From: Eledone cirrhosa
Lineage: Eukaryota
NCBI GenBank assembly: GCA_964016885.1
Contig: OZ024741.1
Coordinates: forward strand, 120,032,001-120,096,000
DNA: 64,000 nt
Direction of reading: 5' to 3'
Of this stretch, positions 5,150 through 61,275 are shown piece by piece. The translations under genes were made by a program, and so were the position numbers. Under the pieces are notes generated by a model. The model did no database searches. It saw nothing but the letters and a program-made list of their open reading frames with translations, and was not told the origin of the DNA. The stretch's first letter is position 1. Every line of letters starts with the position of its first letter.

Positions 5150-8100
5150 ATAACAATGGTTTCATTTATTGGCCACAAGGCCTGCTGTATAGACAATATA
5201 GTAGACGGAGACAGTGGGGGTTTTAATCAAAAATCGAGTAAAAAATAGGAAAACAATAATAATAAACAAGAAAAATACAACAATTAAAGTTCCCCAATAG
5301 GGGAGATCACCACCCAGGGATGACTCACGTACCCCACCAATCCTGAACCACCCGACGCTTCGAGGGCACCCGGGAAGGGCACCCCTCTCCTCAAATTCAC
5401 CAGCCTACAGGCGCATAATCACAGTAGGCCCACAAACACCGGCCATTCTTTTACATTCACTCACTTTTCAGCAAATGTGCTGACTGGAAGCACTTCTCTC
5501 TCCACCCTCACCTTCCTTTCCAAGTGAAATTTGAAAAAGTTGATGAGGGATTGGCCGAAGAGAAAGGTATCTGTCTTCAGTTCTTTCAGCCTGGTCCACC
5601 ATATAACCTCTTTCGCCACCAGACAGGAAAATTGCCTGCCCTTCCTGGCCAAAAGAAGGCGGCGGGTCGATCTTCACTATGGACTCGGCCGATAACCGGA
5701 TCCGTTCTACACGCGACAACAGCTGTTCGACGTAACTCTACAAGTCAGTAATGCACGGACACTAGACGAGTGTGTGCAGAAGGGTTTCGTCGCTCTGCAC
5801 GCATCTCGGGCAGGTCCATCTGACAGCACTTCCATACCTGTAGAGTTTATCTTGAACCGGCAGTGCCCCCCGATAGCAATGCCAAGCGAGGGATTTTTGG
5901 AAGCAATCCATCGTCCCCGGCTCGAAAGCCCTCCGGAACAGACTGGTCAGTTCGACTTGGTCGACGCCCAGAGCGTCTCCGAGTGCGTCGTCGCACTTAC
6001 CCACCACTAATCCTCTATAGAACTCTAGAGTGGAAGTTCCACCGACCGCATTGCCAACCTGGTAGAGGGCAGTGAGTGCCTGGCAACATTCCAAATGCCA
6101 GTCACCCAGTCTCGGTCTCTTCTTGACTCAGGATTGCAGCTCAGTCAAAGAGACGAACTGCGGAAAGGCCCATCTGAAAAACGGTGACCACACCTGTTCA
6201 CCGTTTAGGAAGTATATCTGGAGATGTCGCAGCCTCAGCGCATGACTGCGCATCATTAGCCACGGCATTCCCAACCCTCCACGTAGAGGGTGATGATGGC
6301 AGCAGATGGACCGCCTCACCAACAGAACCTGTGCCCCCCCCCCCCCCCCCCCACACACAAGAATTTAAAGAGGAGCCGTTCCAGCTTGGTGAGGCGCGGA
6401 TGGAGGCAAGGCACGACGGTCAGGAGGTAGTTGATGACGGACGCGATATAGCCATTCGCTACCTTCGCTCGACCTTTCAGAGACAGCTTCTTCGCAGCTC
6501 ATTATTGGGTGAGACTGGCTAACCTGCTCGTCACCTCGTCCCAATTTTTATCCACCTGCAGGTCTGGTCCGAACCAAATCCCGAGCAACTTTACCGGACC
6601 GTCCGTCCAGTGCGCAATGACGTTGTTGGACGACGGCATGGACTTGTCTATCTAGGTGCCGAGCTGCAAGTCCACCGACTTTTCCGGGTTAAGTTTCGCT
6701 CCCGTAAACCTTGCATATTCCTCCAATAAGGTGCCGACCACCTCGATTTCCGGGGTGTCCGACGCCATCATAGTGATGTCGTCCGCATAAGCCGACACAG
6801 CCTTTCCGCGTACCGGTTCGAGCGGGATGTCCTTCAACAGCTCCAGCTGTCGCAGTAAAGGCTCGATAGTCAATACATAAGGGAGGATAAAGGGCACCCT
6901 TGACGGACCGATCGGGAGATCTGAAACGGTTCCGATAGGTGGCCATTAACTTTGACCACCGAGCAGATGCCGCTGTGCATTGCAGCGAACCAGCTTCTGA
7001 AGACGGAGCCAAAGCCAGCTGCCTTGAGGACAGCTTCCAGGTACCGATGGTCGATACTAACGAATGTTTTCGATTGATCTAAATTGATCACGCCCATCGA
7101 AGCCAGGTCTACCCCCTACCTTCTCTATGATGTATCGCATGAAGTGGGGCTTGTCGTGTATGGACCTGGTCGGGATTGCGCAAGTTTGCGCCTCCCCAAC
7201 CAAATCTTCGACGACAAGTGCCAACCTCTTTGCTAACAACTTGGCCAAAATTTTAAATTCTGTGTTGAGCAGAGTTATGGGCCTGAAGTTATTTAATGTG
7301 TTCCTCTTGTTCTCGTCTTTCCTTCTCTGCGTCACTACGCCCCGGCTCACACAACTGGGAATGCTCTCATTCTGCTGTCATTTGCAGTAGATCGCTTCGA
7401 GGAGATCGGAGAACAAGTCTGGCATATTTATGTAAAGCTTGTAGAGCAGACCATCTAAACCGGGTGACTTGCGCCTCGTGCAGCTGACAAGGGCATCCTG
7501 AATTTCGGCTGAAGTTATCGGCCTTTGATAGCGCTCAGCGTCGGCCGTCAAGAGCCGCTAGCCCTCTGACCCGCCACTTCCCCCGAACAACCGAGCAAAG
7601 TGCTGGCGAAAGGTCTCACACATCCGCATGGAATCGCTCAGCTCATGTCCGTTTCGGTCCGTCAAAGACCGAATTGTGGATTTATTACCACGCTGCGCCT
7701 CTGCCACAAACAGCTTTGGTTACCTCGTTCCCCAGATCACGTGACTTAGCTCTGATAATGCAACCTTCGTGTTTCGTATTGAAGAAATTATCCAATGCCA
7801 TTCTCGCCGCTAGCACGTCAGTTGCAATGCCCCTACAGATAGCCTCGTCTAACTTAGCTACCAGCTCCCCCTCCTTTCTATTTTTCTCTAACGCTACTTT
7901 GCTAAACCTTATCGAAATTACTCTAATCTCTTTTTTGAGAGCCCTCCCCCTCCCCCACCATCTGTTGTTGACGACTCCCGCCCCTTGTTAACTTTTTCTT
8001 AACTAAATGATTGACCAGGTCCCTGTAAGCCTTACGTGCCGGAAACGACATGCTCAGTTTCCAGTAACCAGATGCGAATCTACGCATCTTATCTAGGTCG

Positions 8101-13667: not shown

Positions 13668-15324
13668 CAATGGTTGATCACATCTGGCCTGTATAACATA
13701 ATACCGTACTGCCTTGAGGCCACTTATGTCCCAGTGAGCCTGGTTCCTTTATATATATAAAAAAGACGTGTTTTCAAAGAACTGAGCAGCCCTGGATAGA
13801 TTAAGTTACCAATCTGCTGATACCAGGGATTTCTCTCTGTGATTTTGTCTGTACACTCGTTCTGAGAGAAAATCATTGCCGGTCAGCTGCAAAAGTATTG
13901 ACCAGTATAGAAACAATTCAGCGAAGATATTATTTCATTACATTTTCATATGTAATATGTAGCCTCAGCACCATTTCTTTTGCAGTTAAAAAATATTTTA
14001 AGAAACTATATCTTACAAGAGAGAATATAAATAACATTTATGTCGGCATGACAGCAGGAAAAAATGCCAAAGTGTTCATTTCATTTGAATTTATCTAGCA
14101 CATTACCTATGGCATCAAAAACCTGGCCTAAGAATAGTCTATCTATGTCTAAATTAAAAATTTCTATTAAAAATCTATATATGTGGGGTATACTATTTAA
14201 TTATTATTTTATATCAACAAGTAAATAAAGGAAATTGCTAGAATGATTTATAAACGTAGAAAAACATATGACGTCATAGTTTGTTTACAAAATCTACGAA
14301 GGTTTGAACGAAAATTTAAGGCTATAGAGAAAAAAAGTGAAAGGCTTAAAATATGCTGAGAAAACTGAATTAATACATTGTAGAATATAATGAAATATGT
14401 GAAAAAAAATGTGTGAAAAAAAATGTGTAAAAAAAATATATATGTTTAAGAAATTAACCGTTATTCGTGGAATATGTTATAGGAATTAGCGATATACTTT
14501 GTAGAACTGTCTTGAAGGATTTATCATTACAAAGACCAAATAAATCTGTACGTCTATTTATTATAGAGTTGAAATTCGAGATAATGGTAAATTTTTCAGC
14601 TAGACATAAATTACAAACACTAGATATGGAAGCATTTCAGTATGGAGAAGCGTTTCAGATTTTACACCAAGAAATTTTATAATTAATGTTTTTGTCTTTT
14701 AAAGACCAAATAAGTTCTGAGAGTGCGGTGTTGGTCCTTTTAAGTGGATATTCAAATGTAGAAGAATGATTATAGAGTCTTGCTTTAAAAGAGGTAGAAG
14801 TAGAGCCAATGTAGGTATAGGTATTTGTACTAGTTAGCACTTTACATTCGTATACTAGGTTTTTATCGAGACAGAAATTACTAAGAGGACAATTAGTTCT
14901 AATAGGGCAGTTGCATTTACGATTAAGATTATTAACAGAGTTATTTGCAAGCGGCCCAGGATTAATTATATTAGGAACTGGAGTGGTGGAATTAGCTAAA
15001 GGAGCTGCTAAAGTTTCTAGATTTACATTATTATTTGAAGTATTCCTCAAAGTTACAATTGACGTCGTATTTATACTTGTGTTATTTTGCCTAGCGTTTA
15101 CATTGCCGTCGGGCCTTACAGTGTTATTATTATGACTCTCGTGGTTGGATGCATATGAGTTATTATTTACTATTTTAGAATTATGTCTTGAGATAATTTT
15201 AGAAATGTTGGAAGTAGTGGAATATGAGAATTTAATAGTATGCTTATTGAAAATCTTACTATATTTATGTGAAGGAGGGAAGCTGTTATCTAAAGCCCTA
15301 AAAAATAATTTAGGGATGCCCTTG

Positions 15325-15448
15325 TCATTCTGAGTTCAAATTCCGCCGAGGTTTACTTTGCCTTTCATCCTTACGGGGTCGATAAAATAAAATACCAGTA
15401 ATGCACTGGGTAATTGCTGGCCTTGTGCCAAAAGTAGAAACAATTATT
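15325..15448 (+). mobile_element. 5'-truncated SINE inside the PLE
   Basis: B-box through tail of the SINE family. Confidence 0.85.
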
Positions 15449-15902
15449 AATAACTGAAAGAGAGAAGGGAGCGTTGTACCAAAGGATATTTTTATATCTA
15501 GGTCTCCTTCCTTTTGCTAGTGGTATTATTAATACTAGCTACATTACTATAAGTTCTGCCAAGATTAGTTTCCTTAGTGTTTCTAATTGTGTCTGGATAC
15601 CCAGCCCTAGATAACGCATTATTATAATAGTTGGCATTAGCTTCGAAGATATCTTTATTAGAGGATAAATTAGAAATTCTTTTTTCTACACTTCTGACTA
15701 TAGCAGTTTTAACATTATTAGGGTGGTTAGATTTAAAGTTAACGTAATTTAGGTTCTCATTATCCTTATGATATGGGTAATATAGGCCAGTATCTAGATT
15801 AAGGGATATATCAAGAAAATTTGCTAATTTATCATTATTCTCGAATTCTATTTTTAAGTTAAGATGCTTAAATAGTTCAAGTATATTTTTCTTAATAATA
15901 TT

Positions 15903-16087
15903 TGTTTCTACTTTTGGCATAAGGCCAGCAAATTACCCAGTACATTACTGGTACTTTATTTTATCGACCCCGTAAGGATGAAAGGCAAAGTTAACCTCGG
16001 CGGGATTTGAACTCAGTTCGTAAAGGGACGTAACTGTGCTGCAAAGCATGGCGTCTGACCTTCTACTGATACTGCCAATCCACCGCC
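15903..16087 (-). mobile_element. Full SINE with 18-bp TSD inside the PLE
   Basis: ATTTTTCTTAATAATATT is duplicated at 15885-15902 and 16088-16105. Confidence 0.9.
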
Positions 16088-17112
16088 ATTTTTCTTAATA
16101 ATATTAAAGTTTACTTTGTTGCAATTAGAGACAGTAAAAAGAGCATCATCACGATAAATACCACCGCGAAGTTGAGGAATTTTCCGTTTTAAAGAGTTCA
16201 AGATGAAAATTCCAACCAAGTCGGTCAATTGAGCTGAATCCGACGAACTCATGGTGATGTCGAAATTGTTGGAAGTATCCGCTCTTGTCATTGTTAAATT
16301 CCAAGATTGTTTTCCTTGCGGTGAGAATGATGTTTAATTCATCAGTAGTGATGTCCGAGTATTTTAAGGCATATGAGAGAGCCTTGTTAAGGAGTGAAGG
16401 GGAAATAGAAGAGTAATAGCTAGCAATGTCTAGTTGAATCAATTTTAGTTTGTTTTTATTATTCAGGTCATTGAACCAGTATATCACATCAGAACAACCC
16501 GACCATAAATTCAATTGAGATTTAGAGCTAACCTGTGGGATAATTCTATCCAAGATGGATTTACTAACGACCCCCAGGTCAGATTTAGAAGAGGCAATTA
16601 GTCTTACAGCCAAGTCGGTTCTAAAATTTCATTTGTGATCCTTGAGACTAATCCTCGGAATTCTTAGGAAGAAGGGTTCTGCTTTTTTCTCAATACCGAG
16701 TTTGGTTATAATCTCATATGCTTCACTATTAATAGAATCAAGATTATCGTACGTAGTTTTACGATAATTTTTTCTTAATTCTTTAAGGATAAGGTTATTA
16801 TATTTATCCTTACTTATGCCATATAAATTATTTGTTTTGTCAGAATGAACTAAAACGTTTTTAGAAGAATTAAGGTCATTAATTTTATTCTTAAGGTTGA
16901 TAAGGTGTCCCTAACGTCGATAAGGGTTTCTTTTGAATTTAAGTCCTCGTATAATTTTAGTTAATTCATTTTCAAAATGTGCTAAGTTTTTATTAAAGGA
17001 AGGATTTCTTCTGGAGTTAAATAATGAATCGAGGTTATTAGGTTCCTTTCTATAAAAATTTCCTTTTAAGCGCTGGTCATGGAAATGTGAGATCCATCTA
17101 AACCTCGGCACA

Positions 17113-19236: not shown

Positions 19237-20198
19237 TTGAAAAAGGGGGAAGAGTTTCACACAAATCAAAGTTTATATGGACTGACTTATGTATTATTCT
19301 AGTTGTGAGAATTTTTTTTTTTGTTCTATTTGTATATGTACTTTCTTCGCTGATTTTTCTAATCAAAAGAGTTCTCCTATTTTTATATCCACTATTGCTC
19401 ATGTCATGCGATATACTCTCCCGTGATTTGATAAAAAATTAGAGAAATCAAAATTATCTTATCGTAATTACAACCATGATACGTCTCATCAGGTAAACTC
19501 GTTTTGTTTCTTCTTTCCTATTTTCAACTTTATGATGATCCGTAATATTTATATGGATATAAAGCAAAGTAATGATCGAGAGATATCATAGAAATCAGAG
19601 CGGAGTAATTATTTGGGGGATAAGAAGCTGCATAATAAGCATCTAAAATATATCTGAAACTAAATTAGAAGTTTACGGTTGATGATTCGAACTGCTGGGT
19701 AGAGAAGCTAAGAAAATATTCTTTATATCCGGTAAGCATGTTAACCGGAAATCAAGTGGATTTATATCGCCAGGAAATGAATGGTCTCATATTTCGGACA
19801 TTTCAAATATATTCAACATTATACGATATTTATTACTGAGATTTTCAACAAGAAACATATTTATTCAAAAATAGGGTTTTAAACATAAAAAATATTTTCC
19901 CTCTACCGTGCTACACATTATAGCTTCATGTCACTCTGGGATCTCCATTATATAAAAAAGAGCACAATAATGTTTTTCTAGGAATTCAGTTGCTCGTCTT
20001 ATAAAAGGCGACTGAGTGGAGACAATGGTAGGGTGCTGTACTAAATATGACTGAAATTCCTTTGTGATTGTTTTGGGGTTAGGGTTGGGGTTAGGGTTAG
20101 GGTAATTAATAAAATGAACCTCATTACACCGAGATCGATTGAACTGGCTTTATGAGGTTCCTCTGTAACAGTATAATACATAATTATTTGTCAATAGA

Positions 20199-26191: not shown

Positions 26192-26292
26192 TATTGAAGT
26201 TTATTTAAATTGTTGGGATAGAATAAGCAATATATATATATATATATATATATATTATTTACTATTATTGTAATATTATCATTTCAATGAAT

Positions 26293-26359
<67 letters not shown>

Positions 26360-27326
26360 TTGAAATGATCATAGTATAATAAACCTTCTAAGGAATTACA
26401 CCAGTCCAGCCTCCTGCTTTTTAAAATAATTAACTCCGTACTTGCATCACCATCTACACAAACGAAGACGGGTGAGTTGCATTACGTTTGAGTGCTATCC
26501 ATAATATTACATCGAGCTTGACCATACGGAATTATCAGTTCTATCCAGTGGTGAACCAACAAAGCTAAATAAATAATGCTCCAGGAAATGTCGAGCGCTT
26601 TCAGATGTAATAAGGATAAGGGGCCCTGACTCCAGTGTACAGTTATCGCCAGCATGGGACTAACTACACACCATTCAGATTTTGGCTGCATTGAGCTTTA
26701 TCTACCGCCCACCTGGACCATACATTGCTGCTTCCCTATCGAGAGTATTCAGACTCCGTCAGACCTCATAGATTCTTCAAAAAATCAACATATTCTACTA
26801 TACTCTGTATTGTATTGACTGAATTATCTATCCTGGGGATTCACATTGAAAATTAAGACTCGAACATACACTAGGTATCACCTGATGCCATTCCAACTCT
26901 TCCATCCTCTATATCTATATGTATAACCTTGTATTCTCCGACCGTGCTATATATTGTACACTTACTTGACCTTGATATGTATTTTATTTCTCCTGTATTT
27001 TGATTTCTTCGATATGTTCTTATATACTTCCTTTTTACTCCCTACATCACCACCTTAGGTATGGCTGTATTTTATTTATGTATTTTACTTATGGTTTTAT
27101 TTATGTATTTATTTACTCGCTTTACTCTCATTATATACTTATCCTTGTACTCATTAGCACACGACCCTAGAATATTACTCTCTGTACCCCTATATCTGTT
27201 TATCTTTATTCACTCCCCCTACCCACCCAAGAATCACACTACATATAACCCAGACTAACTGGGGACTAAATATAGTCTATTGACACATTTCGTCAGATTT
27301 TGCCACTGTTAAACTTCACATCACGG

Positions 27327-27853
27327 GTGTGAATAACTAATAATCGTTTGGTACACGCGATGATCCGACGGATGTGGCGGCTTTCCCGACTGCACGCCAG
27401 GCGCTCGGGTCGATCAGCCTTCCTAGAGTGCTTGGAAAAATAAATTTCCCCTTTTTTCGGTAAACGATAATACTCGGAACGGCTGCTTCGCCCTGGGGCC
27501 CTGTCAGACTTGGAACCCGCCGCGCCACCGGTTATTGACCGCCAAACAGTACCTTTAAATTCTAGGCTTAACCATAACTTTTAACTTTATCTTGCCTCCT
27601 TCTACTAGCACTTAACTAAATCCCCCACCAGTGTGAATAACTAGTAATCGTTTGGTATATACGATAGCCAGCCGACGGTGGCGCACTTCCCGCTAGCACA
27701 CCCGACGCTTAAGACAGTTAACATTCCTGGAGTGCTCGGAAAAATAAATTTCCATTTCTTTCGCTAGACGATAATACTCGGAACGGCTGAAACGCCGTTG
27801 GGTCCCGGGCTGGCCGGGGGTCCGCGACGTCGCTGGTTATTGACCGCTAAGCA
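27327..27853. repeat. Two diverged ~222-bp CpG-rich tandem modules
   Basis: 27327-27548 and 27631-27853 align almost without gaps and share several invariant blocks. Confidence 0.9.
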
Positions 27854-28402
27854 TGGGCTTAATCTTTACTCTATATTCTACCCTGAAACTTTATCGTGAC
27901 TATCTATAATACACTTAAACTTTTCATAAAAGCCTCCCTCTGTAAATTCTTTAACTAAATCTCACAACTTTAAACCTAAACTTTATTTTTCTAATTTCAT
28001 CTTAAATGGCATTTTCTAACTCTAAACATAAATTTAACGCTTCTAATACTTAATCGTAATTTCTGTCCATACATTATACCATGCAGACACCTACTATATA
28101 TTACTATATATAGCTTTGTTAAAGATATATGTTCTTTGAAAAAATATGTTTCGCGGCACTTTCTAACACTCATGACCAGCTTGATTGTAACCTGATCTCA
28201 ACGCTGGCCTCTGTCTTTGACGGGGTGGTAGTAGTACACTATAAACCTACGCCCCTTCACCAGATGGACATAAGTAGGCTTAATAATCACCACTTGAGGG
28301 CGGCTGACTGGGGTAGAAGATGCTAAATGTTCGGTCGCCCGCATGTTTCTGATTTTTCAGCCCCATCGATTTTGTCTATTATATTCCTTTGCTATATCTC
28401 GA

Positions 28403-28459
28403 ATATCTGATGATGTCACCGGATTCATACTGAACCCGTCATTGAAATGATCATAGTAT
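28403..28459 (+). ncRNA. Type-I hammerhead ribozyme
   Basis: ATAT-CTGATGA-[..GGATTCA tac TGAACCC..]-GAAA-TG AT CA-TA-GTAT. Palindromic ATGATCAT stem III. Confidence 0.75.
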
Positions 28460-28504
28460 AACAAACCTTTTAAGTAATAACACCTGTCTAGCCTCCTGTT
28501 ATTT

Positions 28505-28582
<78 letters not shown>

Positions 28583-28588
<6 letters not shown>

Positions 28589-32659: not shown

Positions 32660-35600
32660 TAATGTTTTCTTTATTAACCACAAGGGTTTACATAAAGTAT
32701 ACATTAAGGACAGTACAGGACAATACAGGACGGTAGAAATGGGCATTTCTGCGTGTAAAAAAAACAGAGGATGAAATGAAACAACAAAGAAAAATTCCCC
32801 AATAGGGGGGAGACTTCCGAGGGACATTTGTGGAGAAAGCCCATTAAAAGACCACAGTGGCCCTGACCACCAGGGCAAGTGCCCTCTCCCAGTTTTCCAC
32901 CTTTAATTTACAGACACATAATCAGAGAAGGCCCATTCATTCGGGCCATACTTGCTTCTCTCACCCATCTTTCAACAAAATGCTGGGAAGAGAGCACTTC
33001 CCTCTCTACCCTGATTTTCCTTTTCAGATGAAATTTGAAAAAGTTAATCAGGGCATCACCGAAGAGGTAAGTGCTCGTCTTCAGCCCTTTCAAACGTGTC
33101 CACCATACTATCTCTTTCGCCATGGCCACCAGACAGATAAAAACTGCCTGCCCTTCCCGGCTAAAGGAAAAGGGTGGGGCAATCCTCACGATGGACTCAG
33201 CTGATAGCCGGATCCGTCCTACACGTGACAGGAGGTGTTCGACATAAACCCACAAGTCAGCAATGCTCGGACACTGGACGAGTGCGTGCAGGACGGTTTC
33301 GTCGCCCTGTGCGCATCTCGGACATGCCCGGCTGACGGCACCTCCATGCCTGTAAAGTTTATCCCGAACTGGCAAAGCACCCCGGTAGCACTGCCAGGCC
33401 AGGGATTTCTGGAAGTTGTCCATAGGCCCCGGCCCGAAAGTCCTTCCGAAGAGATTGGCTAGTTGATTTTCGTCGACGCCTAGAGTTTCTCCAAGTACGT
33501 CGTCGCTCTTCCCCTCCACTAATCCCCTATAGAACGCCAAGGTGGAGTTTCCACCGATCACATTGCCCGATTGGTCGAGGGCTGTGAGCGCCTGAAGACA
33601 TTCCAGTCTCCAAGCGCTCCCACTCGGTCTTCGCTTGACCCAGGACTGCAGCTCCGTCAAGGAGACGAGCTGGGGAACAACGTGTCTAGCAAACGGCGAC
33701 CACACCTGATCACCGTCGAGGAAGAGGTGGAGATGTCGTAGCCTGAGCGCGTGTCTGCGCATCAACAGCCACGGCATGCCCAGCCCTCCACGTAGCGGGT
33801 GTTGACAGCAGATGGACCGCCTGACCATTGGAGCGCGTCCCTTCCACAAGAAGCGAAAGAGCAAACGCTCCAGCGCAGTCAGGCGGGGCTTAGGACAAGG
33901 TACGACGGTCAGGAGGTAGTAGATGACGGATGCGATGTACGCATTCGCCACCTCCGCTCGACCTTTCAGGGATAGCTTCCTCTCGGCCCATTTCTGGGTG
34001 AGAGAAGCCACCCTGCTCGTCACCTCGTCCCAGTTTTTGTCCGTCTGGAGGTCTGGACCGAACCAGACCCCTAGCAATTTAACCGGTCCGTCCAGCGCCC
34101 GACGACGCTGTTGGACGGCATGGACCTGCCTCTCCGGGTGCCGAGCTGCATGCCCACTGACTTTTCCTGGTTGATCATTGCTCCTGTCACCGCTTCGTAT
34201 TCTCTTAGTGTAGTGCTGATCGCCTCGATGTGTTTGGCGTTCGACACCACTACGGTGAAATCGTCGGCATATGCTGACACGGATCTTCAGCATCCTAGTT
34301 CGCGCGGGACCCCCTCAACGTCTCCAGTTTTTGCAGTAATGGCTCGAGAGTCAATACGTACAATAGGGACGAGAGGGGACATCTTTGGCGGACCGAGCGC
34401 ATGATGTTGAACAGTTCCGAAAGGTAACCATTCACTCTCACTACAGAGCAGATGTCACTGTGCATGGCAGCGATCCAGCCTCTGAAGACGGGCCCAAAGC
34501 CAGCCGCCCTCAGGACTGCCGCTAGGTAACGATGGTCGACCCTATCGAAGGCTTTCGACTGATCTAAATTGATCAAAGACCCACCCGTGCCAGGTTCCCT
34601 AGCTACCCTCTCTACGATGTATCGCATGAGGTGGAGGTTGTCGTGGATGGATCTGTCGGGAATGGCGCATGTCTGTGCCTCTCCCACCAGACCACCAACG
34701 ACAAGCGCCAACCTCTTTGCTAGCACCTTGGCCACAATCTTGAACTCTGTGTTTAGCAGAATTATGGGCCTAAAATTATCTATGTTATCCCCCTTGTTCG
34801 GATCCTTTCTCAGCAGCGCCACCGCTCCTCGGCTCACAGAGCTGGGAATTCTCCCGTTCTGTTGCCAGTTGCAGTAGACATCCGCCAAGAGGCCTCCGAA
34901 CAAGTCTGGCATTTGTACGTAAAGTCCATAGGGCAGACCATCTAAACCAGGCGATTTACCCCTTGTGCAGTCAGTCATTGCCTCCCGTACTTCAGCGGTT
35001 GTTATCGGCTTTTCGCAACACTCCGCCTCAGTGGCCGAAATCCGCGGCAGTCCGTCGAGGTAGACACTAAAGTCCATCCCTCGAACCGGCCCGCCACTGC
35101 CCCCGAACAGTTGAGCGAAGTGTCGCTGAAAAGCTTCACACATTTGCCCGGGATCGAGTAGCATGCGCCCGTCGTGGTCCACCAAAGACCGGATCGTGGC
35201 TTTATTGCCACGAAGCACCTCCGCCTCTCGGGCCCATTGAACGGCTTTCGTCCCCTCGTGTCTGAGACCACGCACCCTAGCTCTGACAACGCAGCCTTCG
35301 TGCTTTGCATTGAAGAATTGGTCAAGGGCCAATTTCGCCGCAAGTACGTCGGTCGCGATGCCTTTGCTAAGCGCCTCGTCTAATTTTCTAACTAATTCTC
35401 CCTCTGCTCTATTTTTCTCTATTGCTAAAGCCTTACTAAACCTAATGGACTCTATTCTAATTGCTCTTTTTAGAGCAAACCACCACTTGTTGTTGACGAT
35501 GGCCCCCATCAACGCTCGCTTAACTAGTTTGCTAATCCGGTCTCTGTAGGCCTTGCGCGCTGGTAAGGATGCGTTTAGCTTCCAGTAGCCGGGTCCTCGT

Positions 35601-38413
35601 CTATGAAGCCTATCTAAGTCAAGCACACAGATCATGAATTTGTGGTCCGTGTAGCTGACTATCTTGAATTGTGGACAGCCTATGCTAGACCTATCTATTT
35701 CCCTACAAAATACTCTATCTAGATATGATTTGGATGACCCTATGCGACAGTTCAAAACGCCTGAGCAGGCTGGTGAGGCTCTTGCACTCTCCTCCCCTAT
35801 CCGCTGATCCCACACAGTCCCAGCGTGCATCTAAGATCCCGTTCCAGTCGCCCATTAACACTAAAGAGCGGGACGTTCCAAGAAAGGTCTCCAGACGCCG
35901 GAAGAAATCAGGCCGCCCTGCTCCTGTCGGGACATAGACGGCCACTAGCCTGAAAGCTTGCCCGTCTCCACTGGTCACGTCCAGCACCACCAACTTACCT
36001 TCTGGGTCCAAACCTCTCCGAAAAAGCACAGCAACTCCTCCCCCGATCCAGGACGGCTGGGAGATGCGTACACATCGTAGCCGCCGAAGATCGGTGCGAA
36101 GGCCCGTGCTTCGGAGATTCTGGTCTCGCTGATGGCCACTACATCTATGTTTAGTGACCTGAGGCCCAAGCCACGCGCATTTATGCTGCCTATTCTGAGT
36201 GAGTTCATGTTGAAATGGAGTGGAAAAGATGGGAAAGACCACTTACCTTACTTCTCGTAGAGGAAGGATGGTTTGTCCATCCTTTTCACTGCTTGTGGCC
36301 TCCTCCGGAAGGATGTCCTTATAAACCATCCTGGAGAGTGCTTGTCGGAAGTCTCCAATGTCTTTGGGAAATTTTTGTTTTAGTGTCATGTACGTTTTCT
36401 GTTTGATGCGAGTGATTTGTATGTGTGGAGGTGGTGTGAATTTTTGGGGTGTTGTGTAGTCTTTTTCTTTGATGTTGGTGTTGTGTTGGATGTAGTGTAG
36501 TAATTGGTTGTTGTTCGAATTTAGTGATGTGCAGTGTGTATCGTTTTGGTTATTTTGTTTTATTTGCGTTTGTTGTGGGTTTGTTTCTGTTGCGCTTTTT
36601 GGTGACTTTTGTGGTGTTGGTGATGGTGGTGTTGGGGTTAATGATGGTGATGGTGTTGGTGTTTGTGGTGATGGGGTTGGTGATGCTGGTGTGGATGGTG
36701 GCATAGCTGTCCTAACTTTTTTGTTTGTTAGTTTATTTGTTTCGCTCTGTATTTTGTTTTTGGAGGGGGAAGGAAGAGGATTTTTTCTTTTCGGGGATCT
36801 TTTTCTTTTTTTCATTTTACTGATACCGTTTCCCACTCCTCGTCGTCACAATCTGTCTCCAGTTGCGATAGGTCGGGAAGTGGAAAATCCTCCACAGGCG
36901 ATGGTTTTGGTTGTGGCGTGGTGGATGGTGGAGGCGCTAGTGCTGGTTCTGGCGCGGTGGTTGGTGGTGGTGTTGGTTTTGCTACTTCTTGCTGGGCTTG
37001 TTTCTGCTACAGTTGCTTCTGGTGTTCCTGCTACAGTTGTTGCTACCATTTCTGCTGCTGGTGGTGTTGATGGTTGAGTCACTGGGGTGTGTAAGAGAGT
37101 TGGCCTCAACTTTTTAGCCTGAGGGCAGAAAGCCTTTAGGCGGGTTCCTTCACCACAAACGACACACCTAAGCCTTCTACCCTCGACGATTACGGTGAGG
37201 TGGCTGCCGTCAGTGAGGTCTATCACCTGTGGGATTTCTTCAATGTTTTTTTGGTCCGCTTGGATCAGGAGCTCCATCCCAGATCCAGACCAGTTCTCCT
37301 GCTTTTCTTTTGTTACCTCAATTATTTTCGTGTTGGCCTTGATGCCGGCGAGGACTGCAACCATTAGCCCGGAAATTTAGATGGCCGGTGGAACGTGGGT
37401 CACCCTGATCTTCACGAGTCTCTGGCCACAATAGCTTGGGACGAGTGTGAAGTCGTCGCTTCTTAATGGGGCCATGGAGTGCTCTCTGGCTTCCTGTGGT
37501 GTTTCAAAGAACACGTCCAGGTTTCCATATTTCTGCCCACGTCTGATGTGGGGTTTTTTCGCCCACACATGTCCCAAAGCTTTTTGTATGTGGGGCTCGG
37601 GTGCCCGTTCCACTCGGCGTGATTTTGTGTTTATCGTCCGATAAGACACGGTGCATAGGCGCCGATGCTCCATTTTATTAGGTGTAGGGGGGGCTGACCC
37701 TGTTCCCATCTTTTTTTACCATTCTCTTGGCTTCATTTAATTCATCCTGGCTTACCTCGATTGTTTCGCATTTCTTGGCTGCATTGGCAAACGACACATT
37801 TGCGCTGGTGTTGATGTTTTTGTTGTTATTCTCATTGTTATTGTTATTGTTGTTGTTGTTGTTATTGTTATTTTTGTTATTGTTATTTTTAGTTTCAGTT
37901 GTGGTGGTGGTGGCGTCAGTGGTGTTCGGTGTGGAAGAGTCGATTCTAGGTGAATCCATTTCGATGTCACGAGATAATAATTTTTTTTTGTTTCTGTTGT
38001 CGCTGTGGTGGTGGTGGGGTGGCGGCTTTAACACCTGCAGTTTTTGGTAATGGCGGGAAATGAATGTCTGCATGAGACAAATTAAAATTATTGCTACTGC
38101 TTATATTGTTAGTGTTGGCAAACGTAGTAATATTTACAATGGTGGTGTTGGTGTGAGATGTTAGTTTGTGAGGAAGGCTGTCAGATTCGTGTGGTTGTGA
38201 GTCGTCCATGATTTTTCAAAGAAAGTTTTTGTTTGATAATTATAAAAGTTTAAATTTTGGGCTCAAGGCCCCAATCTTTTTGAGTGTCCTTTTCAGAAAG
38301 CAATATATGTGAACTTATAAACACTTAACAACAAACATTTTCCATATTCGAAACAACTGAAAACAACAAACCTTTGCGGAGTTCACGATAATACGATTTC
38401 CTTCGTAGGTCGC
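32660..38413 (-). mobile_element. Apparently full-length (~5.75 kb) Tx1/L1-clade LINE flanked by (TAA)n
   Basis: ORF1 pieces 38209-36243 (poly-Asn N-terminus, CxxC..C knuckle). ORF2 pieces 36208-32908 (APE, RT with YADD, CPRC..ETVLH zinc finger). Several frameshifts. (AAT)n at both ends. Confidence 0.9.
32908..36208 (-). pseudogene. Tx1 ORF2 (endonuclease-reverse transcriptase), frameshifted
   Basis: ORF pieces 35975-36208, 35715-36242, 34295-35830, 34071-34280 and 32908-34293. Confidence 0.9.
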
Positions 38414-59362: not shown

Positions 59363-61125
59363 TTAACTGTATACTTTGTGAAAAGTCCTATGGAATTTAT
59401 GCAGGCAGATAGAAAACAAATCTGTACGTCTATTTATTATAGAATCTAGGTTAGAGATAATGGTAAATTTTTCATTTAGGCAGAGATTACAGATTTTAGA
59501 TAGAGAGCTGTTCAAGTATGAGGATGCAGAAGAAACCTTCTTCCAAAAGATGGTATATTTAATGTTTTTGTCTTTTAAGGACCATATGAGTTCTGAGAGA
59601 GCAGTGTTGGTTCTTTTAAGTTTGTATTTGAAAGATGAATGATGATTATAGAGACGAGCTTTAAAAGAGGTGGAAGTGGAGCCAAAATAGGTGAAGGAAT
59701 TGGTGCTAGTTATAATTTTACATTCATAAATTAAGTTTTTATCGAGACAATGGTTGTTGAGAGGACATTTATTTTTAATGCGGCAGTTGCAATTAGAGAG
59801 ATTATTAATGAGTGACCTAGTGTTATCTATAGAAGGAATTGGATTGGAGAAGTTGTTTGCGATAGGAATAATAGGAATAATAGTTTCTTGATTTAGAGTT
59901 GGATTATGAACATTTAGCGAAGTTGTGTTTGATGTTGTATTTGGGTTTGCAGAAGTTAGCCTAGGGTTTACAATGACGTCGGGAGTACTATTACTGTTAT
60001 TATGAAATTCAATGTTGGAAGGAAGAGATTTAGTATTTAGTATTTTATTGTTGTGTTTAGAGATGATGTTGGAAATATTGGAGGATGTAGAATAAGAAAA
60101 TTTGATGGTGTGTTTGTTAAATATTTTACTATAGATATGTGAGGGAGGGAAGCATTTATTTAAGGCACTAAAAAATAATTTAGGAATATTGTTATTAATA
60201 GAGATGGAGAAAGGAGCATTATACCAGATTATGTTTTTGTATCTAGGTCTTTTATTAAAATTATTGGAATGATCATGATTAATTATTCTACTGTAAGTTT
60301 TTCTAGAATTTGTTTCTTTACTATATTTGATTTTATCTGGATAGCCGGCTTTAGAAAGTGCGTTATTATAGTAATTGGCGTTAGCATCAAAGATGTTTTT
60401 ATTAGAGGATATGTTAGATATTCTTTTTCCAATATTACTAACTATAGCATTCTTGATATTGGTAGGATGGTTAGATTTAAAGTTAACATAATTTAGGTTC
60501 TCATTGTTTTTATGGTAAGGGTAATATAGGCCAGTGTCAAGATTAAGAGATACATCCAAGAAATTAGCTAGTTTGATACTATTATCAAATTCAATTTTTA
60601 GGTTATGTTGGTTAAAGAGATTACGTATATTGTTCTTAATAATATTAAGGTTAACTATATTGCAATTTAGGATAGTAAAGAGTCCATCGTCACGATAAAT
60701 TCCACCGCGAAGTTGAGGAATTTTCCGACTCAAAGAGTTCAAAATGAAGATACCAATTAAATCAGTCAATTGGGATGAATCGGATGCTCCCATTGTGATG
60801 TCGAAGTTGTTAGAGGTATCGGCTCTGGTCCAATATTCGTTGTTGAACTCTAGGATGGTTTTACGTGCGGTGAGGATGATGTGAAGTTCATCTGTGGTGA
60901 TGTCAGAATATTTAAGTGCGAAAGATAGAGCATTATTGAGAAGTGAAGGCGAAATGGAGGAATAGTAGCTGGCAATATCAAATTGAATAAATTTTAGTTT
61001 GTTTTTATTATCCAATTTGTTGAACCAGCCAATCACCTCAGAAGTACCAAACCATAAATTTAGGTTCAAAGAAGAGCAATTAGAACTAACCTGTGGGATA
61101 ATTCTATCCAAGATGGCTTTACTCA
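59363..61125 (-). CDS. Penelope-like element RT-GIY-YIG, uninterrupted ~590-codon frame, 5'-truncated
   Basis: QFDIASYYSSI, GIYRDDG, Asn/Pro/Thr-rich linker, CNCRIKNKCPLNNHC..IY..YFGST..FKARLYNH..CNLC..EK..CLH. A long AT/GA-rich 3' region continues leftwards. Confidence 0.9.
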
Positions 61126-61275
61126 ATAATGCATACAAATACATACATCAACTCTCATATTATATATATATATATATTCATGTATGTATGTGTGCGTGTT
61201 TATGTGTGTATGTGAGTGTACGTATGTGTGTGCGAACGTAGGTGGGTGCGAGTGTGTGTGCGTGCGTGGGTGTGA

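Follow-up and report, generated by a model that had tools for sequence, protein, structure and literature searches.

The closest described systems to the element treated here are the EN+ Penelope-like elements (PLEs) of the Neptune/Nematis type and the non-LTR retrozymes. According to the available portions of PMC8557442, PLEs form partial tandems and inverted, 5'-truncated copies, their reverse transcriptases (RTs) are the sister group of TERT, and the role of the hammerhead in EN+ PLEs is termed unclear. PLE hammerheads, in the accessible part of PMC4209133, have an extra base after position 9, a long helix II, a palindromic helix III and a G10.1-C11.1 pair. The literature on EN+ PLEs, as far as it was accessible, describes no cis-acting RNA structures beyond the hammerhead. 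Non-LTR retrozymes and non-autonomous PLEs (PMC7229834; bioRxiv 10.64898/2026.07.22.740005, both available in part) are non-coding and arranged in tandem, carry one type I hammerhead motif per unit and presumably depend on PLE enzymes.

A long non-coding Penelope-like element

The window considered here is a stretch of 64,000 nucleotides from Eledone cirrhosa (contig OZ024741.1, positions 120,032,001 to 120,096,000 of the forward strand). Its + strand contains a non-coding Penelope-like unit (26357-28511), which starts with the 3' half of one hammerhead motif and ends shortly after the next. A pseudo-LTR-like partial tandem repeat (26357-26422, +; 88% identity to 28439-28504) is followed by a conserved post-hammerhead leader or tail (26430-26575, +), and the equivalent of position 26575 is the end of many copies. 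The repeat of ~2.1 kb is bounded by (TA)n tracts on the 5' (26230-26356) and 3' (28508-28585) sides and harbours two modules, A and B. Among 30 related loci, 5' truncation of variable length, partial tandems and inverted 5' pieces occur. Hammerhead-to-hammerhead units measure 1.7-2.4 kb (9 loci), with the type I hammerhead motif present once per unit. The ends of copies are concentrated around the hammerhead and tail, away from the modules. The modules are not subterminal repeats of a DNA transposon, given the partial tandems, the inverted 5'-truncated copies and the (TA)n flanks of the host element; this candidate was ruled out, the element having no terminal inverted repeats and its ends being partial repeats in direct orientation, with 5' truncation that varies.

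The element groups with non-autonomous PLEs and retrozymes and has several times the length of the classical ones. It has in common with those described in PMC7229834 and the bioRxiv report the non-coding nature, the single type I hammerhead motif per unit, the tandem arrangement and the presumed dependence on a PLE enzyme. Whereas the non-LTR retrozyme unit is given there as ~300 bp, the window element is ~2 kb long, and its copies are dispersed, 5'-truncated, partly in tandem and partly inverted, in place of the short (~300 bp) tandem-array monomers that mark a classical non-LTR retrozyme. Unlike the hammerheads reported for non-LTR retrozymes, its own is of the minimal PLE type, and internal tandem rod modules do not figure in the accessible text of those two sources. 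The features shared with EN+ PLEs, as described in the available parts of PMC8557442 and PMC4209133, are the partial tandems, the copies that are inverted and 5'-truncated, the (TA)n targets and a minimal hammerhead in which a base is added after position 9, helix II is long and helix III palindromic. It differs from them in lacking an RT-EN open reading frame (ORF) and in having G.U instead of G-C at 10.1-11.1.

The hammerhead claimed by the first-pass annotation was located at 28403-28459 (+) as a minimal type I hammerhead-like motif with CTGATGA at 28407-28413, GAAA at 28444-28447 and the palindrome TGATCA at 28448-28453. Cleavage is predicted, from the sequence, after 28455. Of the four PLE hammerhead features given above, the window motif shows all but the G10.1-C11.1 pair, a U before GAAA in the aligned copies making it G.U. 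The core, the palindromic helix III and a short helix I are present in 32 aligned copies, and the motif scores under the Rfam thresholds. About 60 nt upstream of the hammerhead lies a separate 11-bp hairpin (28296-28342, +), in which both sides change in 10 of the 11 pairs (17 sequences), and this covariation spans old and young subfamilies. The hairpin is a second candidate cis element, and its behaviour shows that the dataset is able to reveal covariation where it is present. Further minimal hammerhead families with other helix II sequences were seen at L031, L034, L042, L046, L152, L153 and L155.

A Penelope ORF between leader and hammerhead was found in none of 37 complete units, nor do these units have any ORF in common. 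Their longest ATG ORFs (43-136 aa) are mainly of low complexity and unshared, and a 54-codon leader ORF was rejected as a candidate, its frame being lost between subfamilies. Several PLEs in the genome bear an ORF with a CxC...C linker and, at the C-terminus, a GIY-YIG-type domain. ORF-bearing elements with the minimal PLE hammerhead type coexist there with the non-coding family. They would be of the Neptune/Nematis type, an assignment made from the linker description in the available part of PMC8557442 and not from a tree. An alignment of the leader with an ORF-bearing PLE scored 34 (maximum in shuffles, 43); the hammerhead type is shared.

None of the sampled ORF-bearing copies possesses the module. 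It is absent from the PLE portions of 30 + 10 loci of the first ORF-bearing family and of 25 + 6 loci of the second. The lone match near the first family (L116) belongs to an adjoining non-coding element, as does the match near the second (L156). The module is likewise absent within 1.5 kb of 30 more endonuclease matches (7 groups). Neither a partner protein nor an autonomous partner was found among the ORF-bearing PLE copies sampled, the 3' flank covered being 1.5 kb for those 30 endonuclease matches. The module-free state of these copies speaks for a site bound by a host factor rather than the RT, or else for a partner outside the sample. Outside this genome, viral contigs gave 0 matches with two patterns, and metagenomes gave 11, none with module flanks, which were taken as chance. 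The sequencing runs with the pattern are DNA runs from one study, with no RNA run among the matches listed.

Several other repeats were recorded along the way. An open 809-codon PLE frame (L148:2963-5389) belongs to a family of at least 150 copies with 93-98% identity in the endonuclease, and Pfam gave no meaningful match for this frame. Pieces of PLE ORFs related to this 809-aa product lie in the window at 59366-61132 (-; 94% identity) and 14508-17111 (-; 57-80%). A near-perfect inverted repeat at 44202-47808 has arms of ~1.5 kb (99-100%) and a centre of ~590 nt, in which a PLE endonuclease fragment is located (45877-46254). The 4.4 kb ORF-bearing PLE unit L181 (G000:C7:32538400-32548300, -) has a 3' UTR in which a module that is unrelated and folds weakly is repeated three times in tandem, and tandem UTR modules may be common in ORF-bearing PLEs. 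LINE ORF2-like frames, which we take to be of the L1/Tx1 kind, occupy 32908-36247 (-), with related copies near 1-800 and 6600-7400. The window also holds a SINE, presumably octopod by its look.

Two tandem modules and their predicted fold

The tandem duplication of ~222 bp reported by the first-pass annotation is real. Over 226 columns, copies A (27327-27548) and B (27631-27853) share 73.9% identity (E 6e-33), and the alignment is, as had been stated, essentially gapless, with a single internal gap. The repeat period is 304 nt, and the 82-nt spacer between the copies (27548-27630, +) is G-poor and without CpG. The modules themselves are CpG-rich, as had been noted, with CpG observed/expected values of 1.29 (A) and 1.43 (B) vs 0.63 in the 5' part of the element. 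The sequence blocks named earlier were all found in both window copies. 'ACGATAAT' is nevertheless not an invariant block, because the T of copy A occurs in 1 of 30 A copies. The proposed fixed spacing did not hold in the family either: the head-to-head distance varies from 251 to 312 nt in 33 complete two-module units, the heads of the oldest module pair are ~390-400 nt apart, and ~19 nt of the right arm are missing from three subfamilies. The supposed TAACCC-like character of the spacers finds no counterpart in the counts: the window has 34 matches where 49.9 would be expected, and the sole match in the spacer carries 3 mismatches. A short run of TAACCC-like repeats was seen outside the element, at 20070-20105 (-).

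On the + strand, each module is predicted to fold as an imperfect rod of ~200 nt, extending from GTTTGGT to GCCAAAC, with a three-way junction on top. In module A, a 5' leader predicted to be unpaired (27327-27345, +), the conservation of which is lost in distant subfamilies, precedes the predicted rod (27346-27547, +), whose basal helix would pair 27346-27352 with 27541-27547. The head (27420-27479, +) comprises TTCC/GGAA, a 2-nt bulge and GAGTG/TACTC (27426-27430 with 27471-27475), the last of which closes the three-way junction with its two hairpins (27434-27449 and 27455-27469, +). The fold of module A has a minimum free energy (MFE) of -81.7 and a z of -4.14, with 0 of 200 shuffles as good. 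For module B, the values are -78.5 and -2.68 (3 of 200 shuffles as good). Its predicted rod (27650-27852, +), the inner part of which also has an alternative fold in the window copy, carries a head (27724-27783, +) with the same junction as module A. RNAalifold applied to A and B alone preferred a different inner fold.

The + strand z is negative in the majority sequences of all 10 subfamilies (-0.7 to -4.75) and lower than that of the - strand in 9 of them. The rod topology appears in most subfamily majority folds; subfamily e does not show it, and the second hairpin is rearranged in subfamilies c and X. In the 64-module alignment, the head helices are paired in 92-98% of cells and scarcely vary. 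The second head hairpin has, by eye, a changed stem sequence with pairing kept in two old subfamilies.

These data bear unevenly on the architecture first proposed. The GGAAA/TTTCC hairpin stands, being paired in ~98% of cells across the 64 modules. AATAAA in its loop was found to be replaced by AATTAA, AATCGA, AATTGA or longer loops in other subfamilies. GAGTG/TACTC is a helix (GAGT/ACTC paired in ~98% of cells, 64 modules), although it is nested, and not crossing as had been suggested. The complementarities AATAAC/GTTATT, said to close the unit, and ATCGTTT/ARACGAT are paired in 71.8% and 65.3% of cells, respectively, and are absent from the folds of the window copies, leaving a unit closed by AATAAC/GTTATT plus a pseudoknot unsupported at 72% and 65%. 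The broader suggestion of an unrecognised structured RNA is supported by the + strand fold z, the rod topology shared by most subfamilies, the co-adaptation of the arms described below and the absence of an Rfam match. A cmscan-type search gave no window match at the gathering score and 17 at E<=10, none overlapping 27327-27853; among IRES, ribozyme, SRP, telomerase, iron-responsive element and snRNA families, none matched the modules. An iron-responsive element consists of a CAGUGN loop on a 5-bp stem with a bulged C below. This candidate was ruled out, the motif reading GAGUGC and being a helix strand without an upper stem.

Conservation of the heads and pairing of the arms

The module core pattern has 1203 exact matches in the 3.0 Gb assembly, compared with 0 for the reversed control, and these are spread over many subfamilies; the leader pattern has 184 matches in the genome. 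From 164 distinct modules, 64 near-complete ones were picked by hand and aligned, representing 10 subfamilies. Identity between the subfamilies is 83% in the head and ~50% in the arms. At this level, conservation peaks at head A, as it does at the hammerhead, and the spacers are less diverged than the right arm. Within the subfamily of the window, divergence (3-7.6%) is similar for heads, arms and flanks, the figure for copy A being biased low because copy A served as the query. This uniformity, together with the peak at the head between subfamilies, would place the constraint on source lineages and not on inserted copies, as would be expected of a cis element for replication.

A first module is paired with a second in the old subfamilies as well as the young ones, and the duplication is therefore old. 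Of 60 leader-anchored loci sampled, 37 reach the next hammerhead; the other 23, without a downstream hammerhead, were not counted as complete. All 37 complete units, picked by the leader, retain at least one module (two in 33, one in 3 and four in 1), which is weak evidence, since few deletions are big enough to remove both. One module would suffice, and two are the usual state. The distance from leader to module spans 244 to 1094 nt in complete units.

The two arms of a rod fit each other better than they fit the arms of other subfamilies. Inter-arm duplex energies are -63.1 kcal/mol for native, -52.1 for swapped and -41.4 for shuffled arms. Swapping arms between subfamilies costs 22.1 kcal/mol on average and is penalised in 43 of 45 pairs; the shuffled-arm swap control gives 3.6 +/- 3.2 kcal/mol (maximum 9.7 among 40), and the - strand 11.1. 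With DNA energies, the swap effect is alike on the two strands (10.7 and 9.3). The test was extended to 20 subfamilies, consisting of 17 clusters of at least 3 modules, which take in 185 of the 258 modules, and of three older groups belonging to the 64-module alignment, and native arms beat swapped ones in 172 of 190 pairs, with 8 of 9 disjoint sister contrasts positive. When the arm came from the other module of the same element, the control values were 3.3 and 5.9, as against 13.2 and 15.9. Each rod contains 3-15 G.U pairs on the + strand.

At the level of individual positions, the tests are weak. A tree-aware covariation test found no base pair significant (best E ~3), and RNAalifold retained 4 pairs across all 64 modules. 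In favour of the rod, double-change cells in its structure number 158 vs 104.5 +/- 11.4 in shuffles, a comparison in which relatedness is uncontrolled. Of 94 changed cells in other subfamilies, 30 retain the arm pairs derived from A and B, no better than in slid controls, and leave-one-out analysis kept 306 pairs vs 295 +/- 5.8, with 12 vs 9.1 +/- 2.8 double changes. The head helices give no covariation because they are nearly invariant. As no pair covaries singly and native arms pair better, the arms seem to be kept as a duplex with a slipping register and the head in its sequence, while exact pairs are not kept. A-to-I editing in the arms was considered, with A>G in 60 of 1374 cells vs T>C in 24 of 1563, yet no editing signature emerged: distinct alleles (A>G 18 of 48 vs T>C 14 of 54, p 0.29) and singletons (p 0.46) are non-significant.

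Possible roles of the modules

On balance, and with moderate confidence, the module is best regarded as a docking site for a protein, one that the non-coding element would need for reverse transcription by a Penelope-type enzyme made elsewhere. Tandem copies of the element would be transcribed, and the hammerheads would cut the RNA into uncapped monomers, probably as dimers, the basis for which is the available part of PMC6765202. The rod would present the three-way-junction head in the + strand RNA, and the head would bind a protein. Since the module is missing from the ORF-bearing Penelope copies examined, this protein would more probably be a host factor, protecting or routing the RNA, than the RT itself. 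The RNA would then be reverse-transcribed in trans by the Penelope-type enzyme, and selection would act on source lineages rather than inserted copies.

Several known systems offer analogies. The Alu dimer consists of SRP9/14-binding domains in tandem. The window element resembles it in being non-autonomous, in its two tandem structured modules with a low-complexity linker, in having monomeric relatives and in the absence of the modules from the coding partners examined; it differs in belonging to a PLE rather than an L1 system, in its unrelated sequence and in modules without a 7SL/SRP match in Rfam. The export elements RRE, CTE and RTE are long imperfect stems with a conserved apical protein-binding head. 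The predicted rod has a similar shape, with a putative protein-binding head, although it shares no sequence or Rfam match with them and the host element is not an LTR element. The CR4/5 domain of telomerase RNA has, like the module, a three-way junction with a short 4-5 bp hairpin. The modules differ from telomerase RNA in having no template, supported pseudoknot or Rfam telomerase match, and in being multicopy in a mobile element. By this analogy, the head might, quite tentatively, be the docking site that brings the telomerase-related Penelope RT, or a host factor delivering it, to select the RNA. The junction would then, just as tentatively, do for this RT what CR4/5 does for TERT, and it would be present in duplicate, as in the Alu dimer.

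The modules may instead act as DNA, in the form of an internal CpG-rich promoter or enhancer. This reading, which we consider unlikely, draws on the CpG observed/expected of 1.3-1.4 and on a nearly invariant head without compensatory change, in which GGAAA...TTTCC would presumably be Rel/NFAT-like transcription-factor sites. The GGAAA-TTTCC loop, however, varies in length and has an extra pair in two old subfamilies; the co-adaptation of the arms, moreover, is roughly twice as great with the + strand RNA as with the - strand. Penelope elements do possess internal promoters, according to the available part of PMC8557442, but those described sit in the pseudo-LTR, and the window heads lie ~630-980 nt upstream of the hammerhead. 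The spacing-dependent DNA module proposed earlier is further weakened by the variable spacing and loop length. The lack of position-level covariation and the faster divergence of arms than spacers would also suit a functionless relic of an old inverted duplication, whose arms template switching would have re-matched in the course of reverse transcription. Junctions between inverted pieces are frequent in the family, and one lies within a module: at L036:2565-2844, a B-type half is joined to an A-type half in opposite orientation. A relic is nonetheless improbable, as it leaves unexplained why the head is conserved and asymmetric, why each + strand rod has 3-15 G.U pairs and why the module is present in old and young subfamilies.

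Catalytic and translational roles are less likely still. The compact, nearly invariant junction with its fixed 2-nt bulge could point to a small ribozyme of a new kind, self-cleaving or ligating, and the element does have one ribozyme-like motif already. The head matches no Rfam ribozyme and has no supported pseudoknot, a cut in mid-unit would ruin the template of ~2 kb, and copies tend to end around the hammerhead and tail instead of at the modules; a ribozyme is thus very unlikely. Y-shaped heads occur in viral IRES and in 3' enhancer domains, and ribozyme-cut RNA is uncapped, so the modules could be IRES-like translation elements inherited from a coding ancestor. The IRES raised by the first-pass annotation is unlikely because the 37 complete units have neither a Penelope ORF nor a conserved one; with the module missing from the ORF-bearing copies examined and 0 matches in viral contigs, we give this role hardly any credence.

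The preferred reading, a docking site acting in cis, concerns a real and apparently undescribed structured RNA module in a non-autonomous retroelement. No description of such modules was found in the accessible literature, and Repbase/Dfam and article supplements may hold the family as an unnamed consensus. Since the family has no ORF, its conserved parts, namely the hammerhead, the pre-hammerhead hairpin, the tail and the rod heads, form a short list of candidate cis requirements. Should the rods prove dispensable, the element would still represent a long retrozyme-like family that is new to the literature found. If the head is a docking site for the Penelope RT or a host factor, the family would provide an abundant and defined natural substrate for studying template recognition by PLEs.
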